From an uncultured archaeon (lineage in GTDB: Archaea; Asgardarchaeota; Hermodarchaeia; Hermodarchaeales; Hermodarchaeaceae): DNA of 64,000 nt. Positions 3,300 through 44,891 of the stretch are shown here, piece after piece (the stretch's first letter is position 1; each line of letters opens with the position of its first letter). The stretch covers positions 32,001 through 96,000 of the forward strand of contig CAYFXC010000001.1 of the NCBI GenBank assembly GCA_964347045.1, in the 5' to 3' direction. The position numbers were made by a program, and so were the translations under genes. The notes under the pieces are model-generated. The model did not search any database. It was not told the origin of the DNA and saw only the letters and a program-made list of their open reading frames with translations.

Positions 3300-5039
3300 T
3301 TACCTTTGGACTTTTCGCTTTAGGTCATCTAATAGCTGGTTTGCCACTTCATGTGGATCTGCGTCAGATACATCATTGACTGACAGTTCTAGTTCATTGG
3401 AGAAGGTGTTCAGATTTATTCGACCAGATAATACGATTTCTTTGCCCAGTAGTTTTTCTTCTACTTGTCGAACAGGTTCATCTTCATTTCCTGATTCTGT
3501 AATTAGAGTCTTTGCCGCGCTACCAGCAATTCCAAAGAGTTTCTCTGCTGACCCCCCAATAAGGCTAGCACGAATATTTTCGGTTCCATCATCTATTACG
3601 ATTTTGGCAATTAACCGTGGTTCAGATTGTGAAATTTTACCACACTTTGGACAGGTAATAGTTGAATTGCTTTGAGAGACTTTTTTGTAGCATTTCGGAC
3701 AGGAATCATATACAGATTTTTGGTGAATTATCTGAACAATCGTTCCGCGGACCGAGACAAAATTCCCTTCTCTTACCTTTGCAAGTACTTGATTGGGAAC
3801 TTTGGTTTGTCCAGTTCCTACAAAGTTCTCTGATGGGTTTTTAATTTTCAAGTCAGGAGGATTTTGAAGAACTTCAGTTGATTCGTTAATATGAAGTTCA
3901 AGCTCCGGACGAAGACCTGATCGACAACTAACACCTGCTAACAATAACGTCGCACCGTTTTTGATATCAGCAAGGTTTTCAGCGGCTTTACCCCAAGCCA
4001 CAGCACGAACGCGCCCTGAATTATCAGCTAAGGTAAGTACCAGACGTTTTCCTTCTTGACCATCACGTCGAGTAAAAGAACTCAATCCTTGATTTTCAAT
4101 CACGATAACACCGACTGTGTTAGCATAATCTCCTGGTTTAAGATCTTTAAGCAGTTGAGGTTTAGATGGCTGTTTTGCTGGTTGTTCTGAAGTAGAACTA
4201 AGCTGTTGGAGTCGACCACGACGACCTAGGTGTAGTTCGGGTTCATTATTTTGGTCCAATCGCACATATCCACTCTCAATACGAATTCTGTCATTTACAG
4301 ATAATTTGTTAAACCAGTCACTCTGCTCGTCCCATAAAACCAGTCGTGTACGGCCAGTTTCATCGCGAAGGGCTAAATTAGCCACAGTTCCCTCTGAATC
4401 TTCTCGTTTAAAGGAAGTTATCCGATACTTGACAATAATTTCACCTTCAACAAAGACATCACTCATTCCTTCTTGAAGCGCCTTTATTTTTGTAAGAGAA
4501 ATTACTTCATCAGGAAAGTCTTTGGAATCTACATCTGGGGGATTAATCATAATTCGACTCCCCCCACCAAGATGTAGTTCTAATTGATCACGAAGGCCTG
4601 TTCTAACTCGCCCATTAATTATACGAAGAATATCACCTTCATCGAATTCCTTATCTTCAATCGGTTGTGTGTGCTTGTTCCAAAAAGTGACACGAATCGA
4701 ACCTGTTGCATCATTACCCAATATGCTGGCAACTTGGCCCTCTCCTCCTTGTTTTCGCTGAAATGTTCTTACTGGAAAAATCCGGATAACCTTCACATTT
4801 ATCGAAACACCTGTCATTCCTGCAACAAGGTCACGTATTGTAAGTTTAAGTTCAGGTGTGGCTTGACTTTCAAATAAGTCTAAATCCAACTCCCGAGCCA
4901 CCAGGGATGCCGCACCCTCGTCAGTTACATAGCCATTCAATTCTTTCTTTTTTGCCTCAATTAATTGCAAAACCTCTTCCTTAGGTTTACCAGATTTGGT
5001 AACAATCAGATCAACAATTTCGGCAAGCTTAAGTGGCAC
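3300..5039 (-). CDS. rpa: Replication protein A large subunit (multiple OB folds plus C4 zinc finger)
   Basis: Repeated DxTGxIRxxxW OB motifs and CPKC...CPKC. Confidence 0.9.
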   Translation of the reverse strand: MPLKLAEIVDLIVTKSGKPKEEVLQLIEAKKKELNGYVTDEGAASLVARELDLDLFESQATPELKLTIRDLVAGMTGVSINVKVIRIFPVRTFQRKQGGEGQVASILGNDATGSIRVTFWNKHTQPIEDKEFDEGDILRIINGRVRTGLRDQLELHLGGGSRIMINPPDVDSKDFPDEVISLTKIKALQEGMSDVFVEGEIIVKYRITSFKREDSEGTVANLALRDETGRTRLVLWDEQSDWFNKLSVNDRIRIESGYVRLDQNNEPELHLGRRGRLQQLSSTSEQPAKQPSKPQLLKDLKPGDYANTVGVIVIENQGLSSFTRRDGQEGKRLVLTLADNSGRVRAVAWGKAAENLADIKNGATLLLAGVSCRSGLRPELELHINESTEVLQNPPDLKIKNPSENFVGTGQTKVPNQVLAKVREGNFVSVRGTIVQIIHQKSVYDSCPKCYKKVSQSNSTITCPKCGKISQSEPRLIAKIVIDDGTENIRASLIGGSAEKLFGIAGSAAKTLITESGNEDEPVRQVEEKLLGKEIVLSGRINLNTFSNELELSVNDVSDADPHEVANQLLDDLKRKVQR

Positions 5040-5276
5040 GTGTCAAGACAGCCTCCCTGACATGATATAATTATGTCACAGAGTTTCTTCAACCTTTGTA
5101 TTAAAACATGTCTTTAAAACGTGTAATTTGTGAGACGACCAAATAGCAGATAATGTATTTCAATTCCGCTTTTCTCCTTAATCGCAATCCTTGCTACTCA
5201 TCAACCACCAACGCACCTATAAAGGTTTGAGACAATCATCGCCTTGCTCAGATCTGCAACTGAGGTTCCGAGATTA

Positions 5277-8090
5277 ATGAAAAACGTCTTTTCACTACTG
5301 GACCCCCGTATCCAAAGGGAATTGAAGAAGCTTGGATTTTCCAAACCTACTCCAATCCAAGAAAGCGCCTTCCCGAGGATTTTTCGGAATGAGAATCTCC
5401 TTCTCATCGCCCCAACAGGGCATGGAAAAACAGAAGCAGCTTTTCTCCCCAGATTGCATCAGATTCTGACCAATCCACCAACCGAAGAAGGGGTTTATCT
5501 GCTCTGGATTAGTCCTCTAAGAGCGCTTAATCGAGATATTCTCCGCCGGCTTGTTCTAATTGCCCAGCACCTTCAAATCAGTGTTGAAGTCAGACATGGT
5601 GATACAAAGCCCTCAACGCGGCGTAAACAAACGCTGAAGCCTCCTCAATTGTTTATCATAACGCCCGAAACGCTACAAGCCATTTTGGTGGGAAAAAGGA
5701 TTCGAGAACATCTACGTAATGTAAGATGTGTCGTTATCGATGAAATTCATGAACTTGCCGCCAGTAAACGTGGAGTTCAATTGATGGTAGCATTAGAACG
5801 ACTTCGTGAGTTATCGAAAAGACCGTTTCAACGAATTGGGCTTTCAGCTACAATTGGAAACCCCAGCGAAATTCGAGACTTTATGGGCGGAGAAGAAAAA
5901 GTAAGAATCATCAAATCTCCGGCCACGAAAGAGTTTCGGTTCCGCCTTGAGTATTGCCCGTTTTCCTACGAGGATAACGATAAATCACCTCTCGATGGTC
6001 CTGCAGAAAGGATATGGGAATTAGTAAAGCAACATTCATCGACACTTATTTTCTGTAATGAACGACAAACTGCAGAGGCACTTGGGCTCAGGTTAGCAAA
6101 ACTTCATGACAATGAATCTGGCGTTCACCACGGTTCTCTTTCTCGAGAAGCGCGAATTGAAGCAGAACTCAAATTCAAAGATGGTGAAGTACCCTATCTA
6201 GTTTGTACTTCATCCCTAGAGTTGGGACTGGATATCGGAACAGTGGATTTAGTAATTCAGTACGGATCACCACGACAAGTCATCCGGCTACTCCAACGCG
6301 TGGGTCGAGCAGGACATCAACTTGACCGTGAATCAAAAGGAATCATCATTACCACAAAGTTTGATGATGTATGCGAAGGAATGATCGTGGCTCAAAATGC
6401 CTTAAGTGGGTGCCTTGAGACACCACCCATTCATTACAACGCACTAGATATTATCGCTCATCAATTAGTTGGTCTAGCCATTGAATACAAAACTCTTACC
6501 TATGAAAAAGCGATTGAAATAATCAGACGCGCACCACCATATCGCACTCTTGAAGTTGAGAAAATATCACATGTCATAGAATTTCTGCAAAAGGAGAGAT
6601 TAATTTCTATGGACGATGTGATTTTGCGCCCTCGAAGAAAGTCCTATCCCTATTATTTTGAAAACTTATCCGTGATTCCTGACACGCCCCACCATCGTGT
6701 CATCAATGTGGCAACAAATCGACCCATTGGACGCCTTGATACTGGTTTTGCTGAAGAATATGGTCAAACTGGTAATATTCTAGTTCTTCGAGGTCGTCCT
6801 TGGGAAGTGATTAAACAAGATGATGAATACGTATACGTAACAGCAATTCAACAAACGAAGGGACGAATACCCCGATGGAGTGGAGAACTAATCCCTGTCT
6901 CGAAGATGATTGTTGAAGGAGTAAGTGATCTTTGGAACCAGTTTGCAGAAAATGTAACCAACTCAGAACCAATTTCCTTTGATATCGATACCGACGAAGC
7001 TGCAAAAGAAGTACAACTTAAAACCATTAAAAAACAGCTTCAAAGTGAATTCATACCTCATAAACGAACCATTATCATTGAAGTTGGTCATGAACTAATT
7101 GTCATCCATTCATGCTACGGAACACGAATAAACGAAACCCTTGGTCGTTTACTCGCAGCAATTTTAACTTCACAATTAGGAAGAGAGATTGCATTTCACG
7201 CAGATCAATATCGTATTCTTTTTCGATTTGAACGTGGAGGTGGATATTCGATTGGAGAAGCCTTGTATGAAGGACTCCAATCGCTGGAATCCACCCACAT
7301 GGATGAATTATTAGAACTGATCTTGTTACGATCACCGTATTTTGCGAGACGATTTCTACACGTCGCTCGGAGATTTGGAGTTATTTCACGTTCAGCGCGC
7401 CTTAGAAGTAGCCAGCTTCTCCGAATTATGCAATATTTTACTGGAACACCAATAATTGATGAAGCACTCAGAGAGTTTTACGTTGACAAACTGGACATTG
7501 AAAACACTCGAGCTCTTTTAGATGCCATTCAGAGCAATGAAATCAAAGTTAAACAGATATTCCGAAAGAGCCCTTCTCCTTTTGCACGTCAAATTCTAGC
7601 AAGATTTGGTGAATTTCTTGAACCCGAAACACCTGAAGCATATATCCTTGAACAAACGAAAAAACGTCTCCTAAACCGTAAAGTACGATTAGTTTGCCTC
7701 CATTGTGGGCAATGGTCAAGTGTACGTACTATCAAGCACATAAATGAGCATCCGCAGTGTAAAAAGTGTGCATCACGGTTAATTGCAGGAATTTTTCCAA
7801 CCGATGAATTACTACAGAAAGCCATTCGTCACAAGAGAGCCGGTATGAAATTATCTCCTGAAGAACAAAAGGCGTTACGTAAGGGTCGAGAAAATGCTAA
7901 TGTTGTGTTAAATTATGGAAAACCAGCTTTGATTGCAATGGCGGGCAGAGGAATTGGTCCAACAGTAGTTAAACGTATTCTTGCAGGAAGTCATGAACGT
8001 CCTGAAGGTGAATTCTATCGTCTTATTTTAGAGAATGAGAAGCAGTTTATTAGAACGCGTGAGTGGTGGGCTGAATCGAAGACTGAATAG
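5277..8090 (+). CDS. lhr: Lhr-family ATP-dependent DEAH helicase with C-terminal zinc finger
   Basis: APTGHGKT, DEIHE, SAT, SLELGLDIG and QRVGRAGH motifs. Confidence 0.93.
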   Translation: MKNVFSLLDPRIQRELKKLGFSKPTPIQESAFPRIFRNENLLLIAPTGHGKTEAAFLPRLHQILTNPPTEEGVYLLWISPLRALNRDILRRLVLIAQHLQISVEVRHGDTKPSTRRKQTLKPPQLFIITPETLQAILVGKRIREHLRNVRCVVIDEIHELAASKRGVQLMVALERLRELSKRPFQRIGLSATIGNPSEIRDFMGGEEKVRIIKSPATKEFRFRLEYCPFSYEDNDKSPLDGPAERIWELVKQHSSTLIFCNERQTAEALGLRLAKLHDNESGVHHGSLSREARIEAELKFKDGEVPYLVCTSSLELGLDIGTVDLVIQYGSPRQVIRLLQRVGRAGHQLDRESKGIIITTKFDDVCEGMIVAQNALSGCLETPPIHYNALDIIAHQLVGLAIEYKTLTYEKAIEIIRRAPPYRTLEVEKISHVIEFLQKERLISMDDVILRPRRKSYPYYFENLSVIPDTPHHRVINVATNRPIGRLDTGFAEEYGQTGNILVLRGRPWEVIKQDDEYVYVTAIQQTKGRIPRWSGELIPVSKMIVEGVSDLWNQFAENVTNSEPISFDIDTDEAAKEVQLKTIKKQLQSEFIPHKRTIIIEVGHELIVIHSCYGTRINETLGRLLAAILTSQLGREIAFHADQYRILFRFERGGGYSIGEALYEGLQSLESTHMDELLELILLRSPYFARRFLHVARRFGVISRSARLRSSQLLRIMQYFTGTPIIDEALREFYVDKLDIENTRALLDAIQSNEIKVKQIFRKSPSPFARQILARFGEFLEPETPEAYILEQTKKRLLNRKVRLVCLHCGQWSSVRTIKHINEHPQCKKCASRLIAGIFPTDELLQKAIRHKRAGMKLSPEEQKALRKGRENANVVLNYGKPALIAMAGRGIGPTVVKRILAGSHERPEGEFYRLILENEKQFIRTREWWAESKTE

Positions 8091-8098
8091 GAAGGCTA

Positions 8099-8203
8099 CT
8101 ATTCTTCGCGTCCGCCAAGAATGTGATAGGCTACAATTAACAAACTTGCTAAGATAGCTAGCCCGAGGGTTGTAATAAGATAGATTTGATATAAGACACT
8201 CAT
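8099..8203 (-). CDS. 34-aa single-pass membrane protein, OST4-like
   Basis: MSVLYQIYLITTLGLAILASLLIVAYHILGGREE; LIVAYH resembles the OST4 LIVIYH/LVVLYH signature. Confidence 0.6.
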   Translation of the reverse strand: MSVLYQIYLITTLGLAILASLLIVAYHILGGREE

Positions 8204-8249
8204 TTACAGAACCGTTCTGCCAAGTTCCTTTAAGACTTTTTAAGTTTAC

Positions 8250-8681
8250 TCAAGCATCTTCTTTCTTAGACTTTTGAGTAGATGGTTTTTCAATTAGCAT
8301 TTCCCATTCGTCGCGTAGCGCGTCATATCGCATGTCGTCTACATGAATTTCGGAAAATGTTCCAAGGGCCTGGGCAAGAATTTGGGCTAAAATATGATAA
8401 CAAAAATCGACTGTACGTTTTACAATTACGTTGATATAGAAATCTTCACAGTCACAATATATTTCAGATAAGACACGATAATCCCGCGATTTCCCAATAA
8501 CCACCCATGCCTCTCTGCCACTTGGTTCAAAGATATATTTTTTCACAAAGTCCTTTGCAACGGCTTGAAGGGCCTTCCAAAATCGGTCTCCACAGTGTTG
8601 TGAAAGAGTTTGAAGATCCGAACCAGAGATGGCTTGATGTTTTCTGAGAGAGTTCAGGGCGCTTTCTATTTCGCGTTTCAT
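8250..8681 (-). CDS. SWIM zinc-finger protein, SWS1/ZSWIM7-like
   Basis: PSGR..W.V.G, YCDCEDF...CYH SWIM motif. Confidence 0.8.
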   Translation of the reverse strand: MKREIESALNSLRKHQAISGSDLQTLSQHCGDRFWKALQAVAKDFVKKYIFEPSGREAWVVIGKSRDYRVLSEIYCDCEDFYINVIVKRTVDFCYHILAQILAQALGTFSEIHVDDMRYDALRDEWEMLIEKPSTQKSKKEDA

Positions 8682-8744
8682 CGTAACAACAATCTCTTAT
8701 TATAAAGAAAAAAATACCTATCGTTTTAGTAGTAGTGAAGAAGA

Positions 8745-9584
8745 ATGCACTTGGAATTAATACAAAATGAACCTGCCCTCCTTCTTCGTGAGGGATCACG
8801 ACGTGTTTTAGTTGTAGGGGATTTACATATAGGTTACGAACGAATCCTTTTCAAACAGGATTATTATTCAACCAATCTTACTATTCGGATTATCACGGAG
8901 TTTGAAAAACTCGTTGAGAAGTTAGAACCCACTGAAATCATCATCTTGGGTGATTTGAAACACTCTATCCAAGATTTTTCTAAGCCGGAGTTCCATCAAA
9001 TTGCACAACTATTACAACACTTACAGCAACGTGCAAAGGTCACCATTATCCCAGGAAACCATGATGCAGATTTGGAATTAGTTACACCTGACGACACAAA
9101 AATCAGTTCATCAGCAGGTCTTCGCCTTCAGTTCAAATCAAAACAGATATATCTTCTACACGGGCACGCCCACCCATCCTCTGATATTCTCTCTTGTGAC
9201 AGCATGATTATGGGTCACATTCATCCAACCATCTCTATCTCAAAATTTAAACAAAAATCATCTCTACATCGAGTCTGGGTAAAGACAAAGTGGAGGTCTA
9301 CAATTGGCGAGACTACGAAGAGATGGTCAGGTGAAGGACAATTCCAAAACGAAAAAGAAGTGATTCAGAGACTTCTTAATATGAGAATTCTAATTATTCC
9401 AGCGTACCTTAGCTTACTCCGAGGACATGTTCTTAATATTGATTCGTCGAATACTCATCTAGGAACTCCATTATTTCGCCATCTCTCACTAGATGATGCC
9501 GAAATTATAATGCTTGATCACACGCCTTTAGGAACACTTGAAAAATTAAAGGAAAAAAGACACCCCGATAAAGAAACATTTTAA
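8745..9584 (+). CDS. Metallophosphoesterase (Lhr-associated type)
   Basis: GDLHIG, GDLKH, GNHD, HGH and GHIHP motifs. Confidence 0.88.
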   Translation: MHLELIQNEPALLLREGSRRVLVVGDLHIGYERILFKQDYYSTNLTIRIITEFEKLVEKLEPTEIIILGDLKHSIQDFSKPEFHQIAQLLQHLQQRAKVTIIPGNHDADLELVTPDDTKISSSAGLRLQFKSKQIYLLHGHAHPSSDILSCDSMIMGHIHPTISISKFKQKSSLHRVWVKTKWRSTIGETTKRWSGEGQFQNEKEVIQRLLNMRILIIPAYLSLLRGHVLNIDSSNTHLGTPLFRHLSLDDAEIIMLDHTPLGTLEKLKEKRHPDKETF

Positions 9585-9612
9585 GAGCCTATTTACTGTA
9601 TCCTGCACCGTT

Positions 9613-9812
9613 GGGTCGATGGTCTAGATTCTCAGGAAACTAGCTTTCCTGGTCTAGTTTGGTATTGGACAAAGGATAAGTTCCTTCGAACCACCAAAGA
9701 TTCGCGGTTCGGGACCATGCGAACTATAAGTCTCATGGCGGGAATCCGTGAGATCCGGGGTTCAAAACCAGCCTGTATACGCCGGTTGGGGAAACTCCCC
9801 GTCGGCCCACCA
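9613..9812 (+). tRNA. tRNA-Pro(CGG) with four introns (9630-9659, 9666-9698, 9714-9744, 9767-9795)
   Basis: Removing the four BHB/BHL introns gives a 77-nt cloverleaf: GGGTCGA TG GTCT AGATTGGTA TGAT T CGCGG TTCGGGT CCGTG AGATC CGGGG TTCAAAT CCCCG TCGGCCC A CCA. Confidence 0.88.
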
Positions 9813-9910
9813 TTCACTTCCTAATAATTCTTAATGTGGAAAATTCGTCAGTTACCGTAATTTTAGTAAAATTGCGTAAAGCACTTAAAGTATAGTGAGT
9901 TGCCAGTAGT

Positions 9911-10648
9911 ATGCCAGTGGCGGCGCAAGTTAGACAACGTCTTGCTCGACGCATAGCAGGGGAAATCTCATTATCTGAGATCCCCGGTCGTATCATGCGC
10001 AAATGGCGCGAGATGTTTCACATTTCTCAAATCCAATTAGCAGAGGCTTTGAGAGTATCACCTTCTGTAATCAGTGATTATGAAAGTGGACGCCGTCAAT
10101 CGCCTGGCACAAAAACCATCAAACGTTTTGTTGAAACCATAATTACACTAGACGAACAAAATGGCGGCCAGGTGGTAAATGCTTTCCAACGCATGATGGG
10201 TGTAGAGATACCATCCAGTATAATTCTAGATATCAGCGAATTTAGTCATGGGGTTACTATCAAAGAAATCATTGAAAGCTTACGAGCACAAATTATCGTA
10301 GGCGAGGAACTCCTCGATCGCGAGGTTTTAGGGTATCTTATCGTAGATATCTCAGAAGCGTTAGATATTCTATCTAGTACCGGTTTTCTTAAACTATTTG
10401 AAGCAACTGAAGACCGCGTTCTAATTTTAGTTAATGTATCAACGGGACGATCACCACTTGTAGCCATGAAAGGTGAAATTAAACCAAGTCTTTTTGTACT
10501 ACATGGAGTAGAACAAATCGATTATCTTGCAATTGAACTTGCCAAACGAGAACAAGTGCCACTAGCAGTCTCCCGAATCGAATCAGTTGCGGGAATGTTG
10601 CGACGCTTACAAACTCTTCGCAAAAACTCCATCAATGAAAAACAATGA
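9911..10648 (+). CDS. XRE-family HTH transcriptional regulator (COG1709-like, DRTGG-like C-terminus)
   Basis: IAGEI...KWRE...SVISDYESGRR and STGRSP motifs. Confidence 0.85.
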   Translation: MPVAAQVRQRLARRIAGEISLSEIPGRIMRKWREMFHISQIQLAEALRVSPSVISDYESGRRQSPGTKTIKRFVETIITLDEQNGGQVVNAFQRMMGVEIPSSIILDISEFSHGVTIKEIIESLRAQIIVGEELLDREVLGYLIVDISEALDILSSTGFLKLFEATEDRVLILVNVSTGRSPLVAMKGEIKPSLFVLHGVEQIDYLAIELAKREQVPLAVSRIESVAGMLRRLQTLRKNSINEKQ

Positions 10649-10983
10649 GACAATTGAAAATGACAAATAAAATTGCTATAATCGGCGACACTGATACTGT
10701 TGTGGGTTTCCGATTAGCTGGTATCCTCAATTCTGAAATACCATCTGATGCCCTAGCAACGCGTCAAGCATTGCTGAACTTTTCAAGCGATTCGAATATT
10801 TCGATTGTTATAATCACGGAACCATTAGCTGAAGAAATCCGTGAAACCATCGAAGAATTATCCGAACGCCCCTACCCAGTTATTGTCGAAATTCCTGATA
10901 AAAGCGGTCGTCTTGAAGGTAAAGAGAGTTCAGTTCGACGGTTAGTGAAACGTGCAATCGGTGTAGAACTCGAAGGGTTTTGA
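10645..10983 (+). CDS. atpF: A/V-type ATP synthase subunit F
   Basis: IAIIGD.DTVVGFRLAG...VEIPD...VKRAIG; alternative start at 10660. Confidence 0.93.
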   Translation: MRQLKMTNKIAIIGDTDTVVGFRLAGILNSEIPSDALATRQALLNFSSDSNISIVIITEPLAEEIRETIEELSERPYPVIVEIPDKSGRLEGKESSVRRLVKRAIGVELEGF

Positions 10984-11069
10984 AAGATTCTAAATACCAT
11001 AAGAATTTTAACAACAGAATATAGCTGATAGAGAACCGAAAAGTGAATTATCATTTAAGGCGGCTGATT

Positions 11070-43624: not shown

Positions 43625-44305
43625 ATGTCTGGGCGAAATCTTATACCATCAGGTATTCCTTCTCTGGATGAGGTAATGGGAGGTGGGATTGGTGCCGGTG
43701 AGATTCTTCAAATCTTTGGACCTGGTGGAGTTGGAAAAACGACCCTTGCATTACAGTATACAATTAAAGCTACTCAAAATGGGAATCGGGTTTTCTATGT
43801 AAATTTAGAAGGTAAATTCCCGCTAGTTCGATTGAAGCAAATGACTTCTACTGAATTCAGTAAAATTTCTCCCTTGATTACAATTGTATCTCCAGGGAGT
43901 TTTCATGAACAATCAAAATTCGTTTCCAACCTTGATTCCTTACTATCACCAGATGTCACGCTATTGGTGTTTGACACCATTGTGTCCCATTATCGAAAGG
44001 AATATGGTTCTAATACAAATAACGTGATGTTGAATCGTAAACTGAATCAACAGTTTGGGCTCGTTGCCAGTGCAGCTCGATCTTCCAATCTTTCTGTTAT
44101 TATGGTTAATCAAGTTCGCGGGGATATTAGCAACGGAGATCACTTTCTGCCTGTTGCTGAATCAGTTACATCCTATTGGAGTACCTATAGTTTACAAATC
44201 ACTAGAGCTGAATCTAAGGGCTACAGAGAATTTAAGTTGACAAAGGGCAAAGAATCTGAATCTACAATTTTGGTGATGAGCTTACAATCATCAGGATTTA
44301 GATAA
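43625..44305 (+). CDS. radB: RadB/Rad51-paralogue ATPase
   Basis: SGI.SLD..MGGG, GPGGVGKT, VFDT...YR, NQV. Confidence 0.82.
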   Translation: MSGRNLIPSGIPSLDEVMGGGIGAGEILQIFGPGGVGKTTLALQYTIKATQNGNRVFYVNLEGKFPLVRLKQMTSTEFSKISPLITIVSPGSFHEQSKFVSNLDSLLSPDVTLLVFDTIVSHYRKEYGSNTNNVMLNRKLNQQFGLVASAARSSNLSVIMVNQVRGDISNGDHFLPVAESVTSYWSTYSLQITRAESKGYREFKLTKGKESESTILVMSLQSSGFR

Positions 44306-44315
44306 CCGTTACAAG

Positions 44316-44891
44316 ATGACCATAATGTCTCATCCAATCCTTCTGCTTCTTGGCTTTTGGTATGTTCTTCCGGCATATATCGCAAATGGATTTGCAGTAT
44401 TTGCTAAATTTGCCAAATCCCGACACCCAATAGATGGCGATCGTTTTTTACGAGATAGCCAACCACTGTTTGGTCCCGGGAAGACTTGGGAAGGATTTCT
44501 AATTGGTTTTATTTCTGGGGTTCTCATTGGTCTCCTTCAAGTAGTAGCAGCACCATACCTTCTTGCTTTGATTGTTCAATACTTGTATCTTCCTCCGGAG
44601 TTAGTACCTATTGTATTGGTAACTGTTCCGTTAGTGATGTTGGTTGCGTTAGGTGCACTCTTGGGTGATCTCATTGGCTCATTCATCAAACGACGTATGA
44701 AAATCACTCGAGGTCGACCAGCACCAATACTTGATCAACTTGATTTTCTTCTTATGGCGATGCTTCTTGGTGCTCTAGTAATACCAATTCCTTTGGTTAT
44801 CGCTATCTTCTTACTAATCGTGACTCCTTTAATTCATCTCCTTGCTAATATCATTGGCTATTTTCTCGGGTTGAAAAAAGAACCTTGGTAA
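44316..44891 (+). CDS. carS: CDP-archaeol synthase
   Basis: PAYIANG, PIDG, GKTWEG, GDLIGSFIKRR, LDQLDF, KKEPW. Confidence 0.95.
   Translation: MTIMSHPILLLLGFWYVLPAYIANGFAVFAKFAKSRHPIDGDRFLRDSQPLFGPGKTWEGFLIGFISGVLIGLLQVVAAPYLLALIVQYLYLPPELVPIVLVTVPLVMLVALGALLGDLIGSFIKRRMKITRGRPAPILDQLDFLLMAMLLGALVIPIPLVIAIFLLIVTPLIHLLANIIGYFLGLKKEPW

Follow-up and report, generated by a model that had tools for sequence, protein, structure and literature searches.

A conserved single-pass membrane microprotein family of Asgard archaea with OST4-like features and a gene position beside recombination and repair genes

The short open reading frame (ORF) at positions 8099-8203 of the analysed stretch of Asgard archaeal DNA (64,000 nucleotides in total, hereafter the window) is, with hardly any doubt left, a real gene under purifying selection that encodes a membrane microprotein. 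Profile searches place it in a phylum-wide Asgard family of single-pass microproteins, and its neighbours are recombination and repair genes. As to the function, an OST4-like role on the oligosaccharyltransferase AglB/STT3 is the best single hypothesis, for which a probability of about 0.4 was estimated, the kinship with OST4 being suggestive.

The microprotein gene and its conservation

The initial annotation had pointed to a 34-aa ORF at this position without naming its strand, which is the minus strand: the reverse complement reads, from an ATG start codon, MSVLYQIYLITTLGLAILASLLIVAYHILGGREE followed by a stop codon, and Gly14, Tyr26-His27 and the GGREE tail are all present in the product. 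The length of 34 codons alone is not above chance, with 463 ORFs of at least 34 amino acids in the window against 400-457 in five shuffled versions of it, and therefore the ORF was judged by its conservation. A protein search in 41 related genomes recovered an intact orthologous ORF in all 18 genomes of the same family (the Hermod family, two genera), one in each and with 58-76% identity; in the 22 other genomes of the phylum the same search gave no convincing match. All Hermod-family copies keep the same start and stop and are 34-35 codons long. Among these orthologues the mean pairwise pS was 0.74 vs a pN of 0.22, i.e., the synonymous changes are saturated and the non-synonymous ones are few, and the majority-base frequency at codon positions 1, 2 and 3 was 0.78, 0.90 and 0.57, respectively, the third position being the most variable. 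Invariant in the family are M1, Q6, L22, I23, H27 and G31, while position 26 is either Y or F.

It is this combination, a frame, length and stop kept in 18 of 18 relatives while the synonymous sites are saturated, that makes the coding gene real. A chance ORF, or conservation of a non-coding kind, for example in the 3' region of the convergent Lhr gene, could be argued from the frequency of such lengths in shuffled sequence, from the fact that no RNA sequencing run covering the locus was found and from the absence of the exact protein from gene calls, but this explanation is already contradicted by the conservation data, and the profile matches in other Asgard genomes at differing genomic positions and the Shine-Dalgarno-like motifs before several family members (see below) also speak against it, leaving it a negligible chance of being correct. 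The exact 34-aa protein is absent from a collection of 15 billion proteins and was therefore not called by gene callers in this genome, as had been anticipated; relatives in other metagenome-assembled genomes (MAGs) are called and labelled 'hypothetical protein'. Rfam and tRNA scans of window positions 7000-11000 found nothing.

AlphaFold2, run with the Hermod-family alignment, predicted a single helix with a mean pLDDT of 93 (Table 1), and the Kyte-Doolittle maximum of the protein is 2.45 in a 19-residue window. With the orthologues described above, this agrees with the earlier proposal that the ORF encodes a membrane microprotein which is as small as OST4, has one helix and had escaped annotation. 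A Foldseek search with the predicted helix returned no matches. One Arg or Lys usually follows the helix, the tail is net acidic (GGREE), and the N-terminus is uncharged here and acidic in many relatives; from these residues, a topology with the N-terminus outside and the C-terminus inside, as in OST4, may be inferred.

Table 1. Positions of the microprotein gene, its upstream region and other genes discussed in the text (window coordinates).
Feature	Position	Strand	Basis and remarks
Membrane microprotein CDS	8099-8203	-	34 codons plus stop; predicted helix at residues 3-31; translation of the reverse complement, conservation, AlphaFold2
46-nt upstream region	8204-8249	-	Alignment of 19 Hermod-family loci
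RPA-type single-stranded-DNA-binding protein	3300-5039	-	OB folds, Rep_fac-A_C
Lhr-type helicase	5244-8090	+	Pfam DEAD, Helicase_C, WH_Lhr, DEAD_assoc
SWIM zinc-finger protein, 143 aa, Shu2/SWS1-like predicted fold	8250-8681	-	Pfam SWIM E 0.044; AlphaFold2; Foldseek; synteny
SbcD-related / ligase-associated-type metallophosphoesterase	8745-9584	+	TIGR00024 E 1.4e-21 and TIGR04123 E 1.6e-16, both below cut-offs
OST3/OST6 membrane-domain-only protein, 144 aa	44931-45365	-	PF04756 36.1 bits vs cut-off 27

The alignment of the upstream region revealed a TATA-like TTAAAAA at 8237-8243, which lies 34-40 nt before the microprotein ATG and directly past the SWIM stop codon and is conserved in the 19 Hermod-family loci. 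Closer to the start, 5-15 nt before the ATG, a near-palindrome AGAACGGTTCT at 8208-8218 is conserved in genus g1, with GGCAGGTCACCAAA at the same place in genus g2. The 46-nt spacer is likely to serve as a putative promoter of the gene's own with a short leader. The TTAAAAA box and the near-palindrome could correspond to a promoter plus either a leader or an operator element.

Neighbouring genes in the window

The gene order around the ORF is RPA(-), Lhr(+), microprotein(-), SWIM(-) and phosphoesterase(+). The Lhr gene is convergent with the microprotein gene, with 8 nt between their stop codons, and the phosphoesterase gene is divergent from the SWIM gene, a synteny that is kept within genus g1. 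The gene that comes after the phosphoesterase is separated from it by a 326-nt stretch (9585-9910) without a long ORF and without an Rfam or tRNA match.

The SWIM protein contains an invariant C-x-C...C-x-H motif. Its AlphaFold2 model (pLDDT 89, pTM 0.81) had the chains 6dex_B and 5xyn_D of Shu2 as the top Foldseek matches, with a probability of 1.00 and TM values of 0.56-0.62, while the next match had an E value of 0.37. These chains belong to the yeast Shu complex (Rad51-paralogue) and were the sole strong PDB matches of the model. By its predicted fold the protein looks like an archaeal recombination factor of the Shu2/SWS1/ZSWIM7 type. The SWIM gene is present in 258 of the 301 Asgard genomes and also on contigs of Thermoprotei, Hecatella and Bathyarchaeia.

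The OSTC/DC2-type homologue that the initial annotation had placed in the same window was confirmed (Table 1). It matches only the membrane part of PF04756 (profile positions 169-278 of 294), which corresponds to a DC2/OSTC-like architecture, and its gene is unlinked to the microprotein ORF, 37 kb away. If the OST4 reading holds, this protein would be a candidate partner of the microprotein. STT3 is encoded in this genome as well, on another contig (C15). The OST3/6 membrane-domain gene adjoins a CDP-archaeol synthase gene (44316-44891, plus strand), and a gene for a 226-aa Rad51/KaiC-type ATPase is located nearby, at 43625-44305 (plus strand).

An Asgard-wide family of single-pass microproteins

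The comparison comprised 301 Asgard genomes, whose families are designated here f1, f2 and so on, the Hermod family being f1. Directly past the SWIM gene, nine more families (among them f2 with its 1.4-Mb genomes) have single-pass ORFs of 33-43 residues, with gaps from the SWIM gene down to 5-12 nt and with Shine-Dalgarno-like motifs before several of them. The profile of these SWIM-downstream ORFs is termed A2, while A1, A3 and A4 stand for the profiles of the Hermod family, the whole family and the Njord group, respectively. At E<=0.01, A2 matched 141 of the 301 genomes, for example 18/18 in f1, 4/4 in f2, 53/76 in f6, 28/68 in f9, 4/5 in f15 and 5/6 in f18, and the window ORF was matched at E 6.1e-15. 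Further members were obtained from f21 by looser A3 searches and from Njordarchaeia by a search with the protein of locus L044. A protein search with A2 yielded 27 Asgard proteins, all of them unnamed or hypothetical, and none from eukaryotes, and the Hermod-family profile found only three clusters among 1.84 billion representatives, all of the same family. No longer protein carrying the microprotein as a fused part was found with A2.

The members have 33-56 residues and share a single-pass design, in which a short polar N-terminus leads into a membrane helix. This helix ends with a near-invariant Tyr/Phe and carries a small residue ten positions ahead of it, and past the Tyr/Phe come 3-4 hydrophobic residues and a tail that is short and charged. 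The small residue at -10 is present in most members, as Gly in most lineages and as Ala/Ser in the Hermod family. The tails are acidic (EE...) in most lineages and basic only in Njordarchaeia. The conservation of the YH motif, on which the initial annotation had laid weight, turned out to be a property of lineages: His is invariant in the Hermod family, as [YF]-H, and follows the Tyr also in f4, f27 and Njordarchaeia, while in most other families its place is taken by V, L, I, M, S or Q, so that across the wider family it is the Tyr that is nearly invariant and not the His. Some f9 members (L102:619-786, L103:359-526, L105:308-478 and L107:1568-1720) are 51-57 residues long and carry a further hydrophobic segment at the N-terminus and, after it, an acidic linker; the extension is either signal-peptide-like or a second helix.

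Genomic context across the Asgard families

In all 18 Hermod relatives, from both genera, the microprotein gene is located directly 3' of the SWIM gene on the same strand, and such a position directly downstream of SWIM was found altogether in f1, f2, f5, f7, f12, f14, f18, f20, f26 and f28. Variants of this arrangement include a microprotein gene directly upstream of Lhr on the same strand (f15 and f27), one separated from Lhr by a single small ORF (f6 and f17) and one with RPA directly upstream (f4); the distance to the SWIM gene is about 5 kb in f6 and about 24 kb in f9, where the microprotein gene is convergent with a gene for an Obg/YchF-type GTPase. Taken with its variants, the RPA/Lhr/SWIM linkage occurs in at least 15 families. 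The order in f21 (e.g., L139:2140-2283, minus strand) is NurA-HerA, microprotein and rpS3Ae (ribosomal protein S3Ae), which is a second type of DNA-end-processing neighbourhood for the family.

Among about 50 loci viewed, in which the neighbours were identified by homology to the genes of the window or, on a subset, by Pfam, no OST gene was identified beside the microprotein gene. The context is one of recombination and repair and not of glycosylation. In both genera of f4, a gene for a protein of 962-974 aa (L143:2746-5670, plus strand; L144:101-2989, minus strand) is convergent with the microprotein gene. The protein is rich in N-x-S/T sequons, and its C-terminal part contains a single membrane helix and a tail rich in Lys; it had no Pfam match, and its C-terminal part of 522 residues had no PDB sequence match. 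This surface protein of about 970 aa was considered as an OST48/ribophorin-like neighbour and rejected, being without Pfam or PDB sequence matches and too long for OST48.

Comparison with OST4 and other small membrane proteins

The Pfam search did not demonstrate the homology to OST4 that had been suggested at the outset. The Ost4 model (PF10215) scored 10.4 bits on the window protein (E 0.59) vs a gathering cut-off of 25 bits, although it was the protein's only Pfam match. It also matched 4 of 17 Hermod members (best E 0.21) and 3 of 32 family members (best E 0.0073), a number tied for the most members matched, while other one-helix Pfam families scored equally among the 32 members (Orf78 with E 0.0057, Sec61_beta with E 0.052, LapA and PspC). 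Six-frame Ost4 scans gave nothing above the cut-off in any of the 301 Asgard genomes, and in the scan of its own genome the window ORF was not among the matches. The best match of that genome, on contig C11, scores higher than the ORF but is a non-membrane frame and was discarded. A 22-bit match in genome G111 was likewise rejected, being not conserved in its own family, which shows that Ost4 scores of this size are prone to noise.

Searches against the PDB gave a similar picture. The window protein had no match among the PDB sequences, none of the profiles A1, A3 and A4 retrieved an OST4 chain at E<=10, and searches with individual proteins from f4, f27 and f19 gave no OST4 either; the best PDB matches of profiles and members were instead helices of AcrB/MexB, an antiporter (Mrp) or a GPCR. 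The language-model neighbours in the ESM Atlas were YldA/MgtS-like small proteins with scores of 0.80-0.86, below the kinship level of 0.9, and none was Ost4.

A single member departs from this pattern. The protein encoded at L044:1459-1587 in Njordarchaeia had only yeast Ost4 chains as PDB matches (1rkl/6c26/6ezn/7oci, 6xcr, 8agb and 6xcu), with an alignment of nearly full length (E 0.15, 15.8 bits), and it is the only member that matches yeast Ost4 in the PDB. L044 was first picked through an Ost4 model match, and its likeness to Ost4 therefore carries a selection bias; moreover, the Ost4 signal falls, and does not rise, when a profile (A4) is built from the Njord group. The group itself was aligned by hhalign to the broad family with a probability of 93.7% (E 2e-7) and to the Hermod family with 80% (E 1.4e-5), and A2, built without L044, had the L044 ORF as its sole match in that genome (E 2e-4). 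Head to head with the L044 microprotein gene, i.e., divergent from it, is a gene for a 180-aa protein (L044:846-1385, minus strand, genome G093, Njordarchaeia) with a match to Pfam TRAP_alpha (E 4.8e-4, 19.8 bits vs a cut-off of 24.7), which makes it a possible candidate for an Asgard TRAP-alpha gene. The pairing was not repeated in other Njord genomes, the upstream genes in f19 are not homologous to the G093 gene, and the rest of the G093 contig has no OST genes.

The likeness to eukaryotic OST4 (PF10215; yeast Ost4, PDB 1RKL, and chains in 6C26, 6EZN and 7OCI) is one of build: 34-37 residues and one membrane helix are common to both, the tail is short and charged in both, and this genome encodes STT3 and an OST3/6-type protein as well. 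OST4 also shares with the Hermod family and a few others an aromatic residue plus His at the cytoplasmic helix end, with a small residue ten positions ahead of the aromatic one, and the yeast Ost4 spacing G-x9-Y-H equals the small-residue-x9-aromatic spacing of the Asgard family. In contrast to OST4, the Gly of the Hermod family is positioned 12 and not 10 residues before the Tyr, the -10 position being Ala/Ser; the Asgard tail is acidic in most lineages instead of basic or neutral; the His is not kept across the Asgard family; the gene context is one of DNA repair; and the Pfam score is far under the cut-off, OST4 is not retrieved by the family profiles and any binding of the microprotein to STT3 is putative. 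Of the match in size, topology and YH motif that the initial annotation had seen, the 34 residues, the single helix and Tyr26-His27 stand, while the Gly spacing differs and the His is lineage-specific. The same size and single-helix build are also typical of bacterial membrane microproteins (YldA-like PF23689, MgtS-like PF22865 and the AcrZ type). The nearest language-model clusters, YldA/MgtS-like, are bacterial and without a shared motif, and the resemblance concerns the general class only.

The idea of an Asgard OST4, which the initial annotation had put forward as extending the OST complex of pre-eukaryotic times, was already in print: Eme et al. (2023; Nature 618:992, PMC10307638) described Ost4 and Ost5 homologues 'in most Asgard archaeal classes', obtained, according to the accessible part of the article, by distant-homology methods without fixed cut-offs. 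In that part, Ost4 is given without sequences, scores or criteria, and the text of Supplementary Table 3 in the same portion of the source does not mention it; in work on the translocon of MK-D1 published in 2024, only OST1, OST3/6 and STT3 are named. The small proteins proposed as OST4 in most classes by Eme et al. are likely to be the same family as the one described here, whose distribution fits. What the present analysis adds is the conserved linkage of the microprotein gene to the Shu2-like/Lhr/RPA cluster and the lineage-restricted His.

Possible function of the microprotein

Like other conserved microproteins of such size, the protein would act as an accessory helix packed against a larger membrane protein, for which the oligosaccharyltransferase AglB/STT3 would be the leading candidate. 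Yeast Ost4 sits between TMH1 and TMH13 of Stt3, stabilises Stt3 and helps to recruit Ost3/6 (PMC7226087), and in an OST4-type role the Asgard microprotein would wedge between STT3 helices, stabilise the catalytic subunit and help to hold the OST3/6-type subunit. Such a role is suggested by the size, the single helix, the terminal Tyr-His and the small-residue-x9-aromatic spacing; by Ost4 being the protein's only Pfam match and tied top among the members, though at noise level; by the Ost4-only PDB matches of L044, together with its TRAP-alpha-like neighbour and the joining of the Njord group to the family by hhalign; and by the presence of STT3 and the OST3/6 membrane-domain protein in the genome and a distribution that fits Eme et al. 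(2023). It is weakened by the fact that no sequence test was significant and that the profiles and the members of f4, f27 and f19 miss OST4, by the selection bias behind L044, by language-model neighbours other than Ost4, by the lineage-specific His and mostly acidic tails, and by a context of RPA, Lhr, Shu2-like and phosphoesterase genes or of HerA-NurA without an OST gene beside. Part of the same evidence can be read in another way: since any single-pass protein of 35 residues with an interfacial Tyr looks similar, the likeness to OST4 may be convergent and the microprotein may serve a different membrane complex (translocon, TRAP, transporter or energy-converting complex) as an accessory subunit or a regulator. 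The noise-level OST4 scores, equalled by Orf78, Sec61_beta, LapA and PspC, the AcrB/MexB and Mrp-antiporter helices as the best PDB matches of profiles, and the bacterial regulatory microproteins (YldA and MgtS types) as the nearest language-model clusters would all agree with this. Yet no test points to a specific alternative partner, and both the G/A/S-x9-Y(H) spacing and the Ost4-only PDB list of L044 would have to be coincidences; a partner of this kind is a possibility that we regard as somewhat unlikely.

The gene neighbourhood suggests a third direction, in which the microprotein works with the recombination/repair module, for instance by tethering the SWIM protein or the Lhr helicase to the membrane through its cytoplasmic acidic tail. 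Gene order kept over such distances usually reflects a functional link, and here the gene is directly 3' of SWIM on the same strand in ten families, with very short gaps, adjoins Lhr (f15 and f27; near it in f6 and f17), RPA (f4) or NurA-HerA (f21), and is still within about 5 kb of the SWIM gene in f6. On the other hand, passenger genes of unrelated function are common in conserved clusters, an established example being SecY among the ribosomal protein genes, the microprotein gene has its own conserved TATA-like box in the Hermod family, and the linkages to Lhr, SWIM and RPA may represent a single inherited arrangement and not independent events. Furthermore, in the loci viewed from Thermoprotei, Hecatella, Bathyarchaeia and Njord, the SWIM gene has no microprotein gene beside it, the two genes are far apart in f9, no fused forms were found, and a membrane microprotein in repair systems of this kind would, to our knowledge, be without precedent. 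A function in this module is accordingly considered unlikely, and the stronger version, that the family is not an OST subunit at all but a membrane partner of an Asgard repair module (Shu2/SWS1-like SWIM, Lhr and RPA, with HerA-NurA in one lineage), is less probable still. The OST4-like role on AglB/STT3 is retained here as the working hypothesis.

Implications

In practical terms, the locus is a reminder that gene callers overlook this gene in some MAGs of Asgard archaea. It adds a concrete and testable gene family, with sequences, a motif and a distribution, to a claim that is barely documented in print, and it demonstrates that ordinary sequence statistics do not establish OST4 homology. 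The unexpected and deeply conserved linkage to the repair cluster has to be accounted for by any functional proposal. If the microprotein were a partner of the repair module, a part of DNA-break processing would be membrane-organised in the closest archaeal relatives of eukaryotes. If it is a true OST4 counterpart, an STT3-OST4-OST3/6 subcomplex would already be present in Asgard archaea, which would support the view put forward in 2023 that a multi-subunit OST is pre-eukaryotic.
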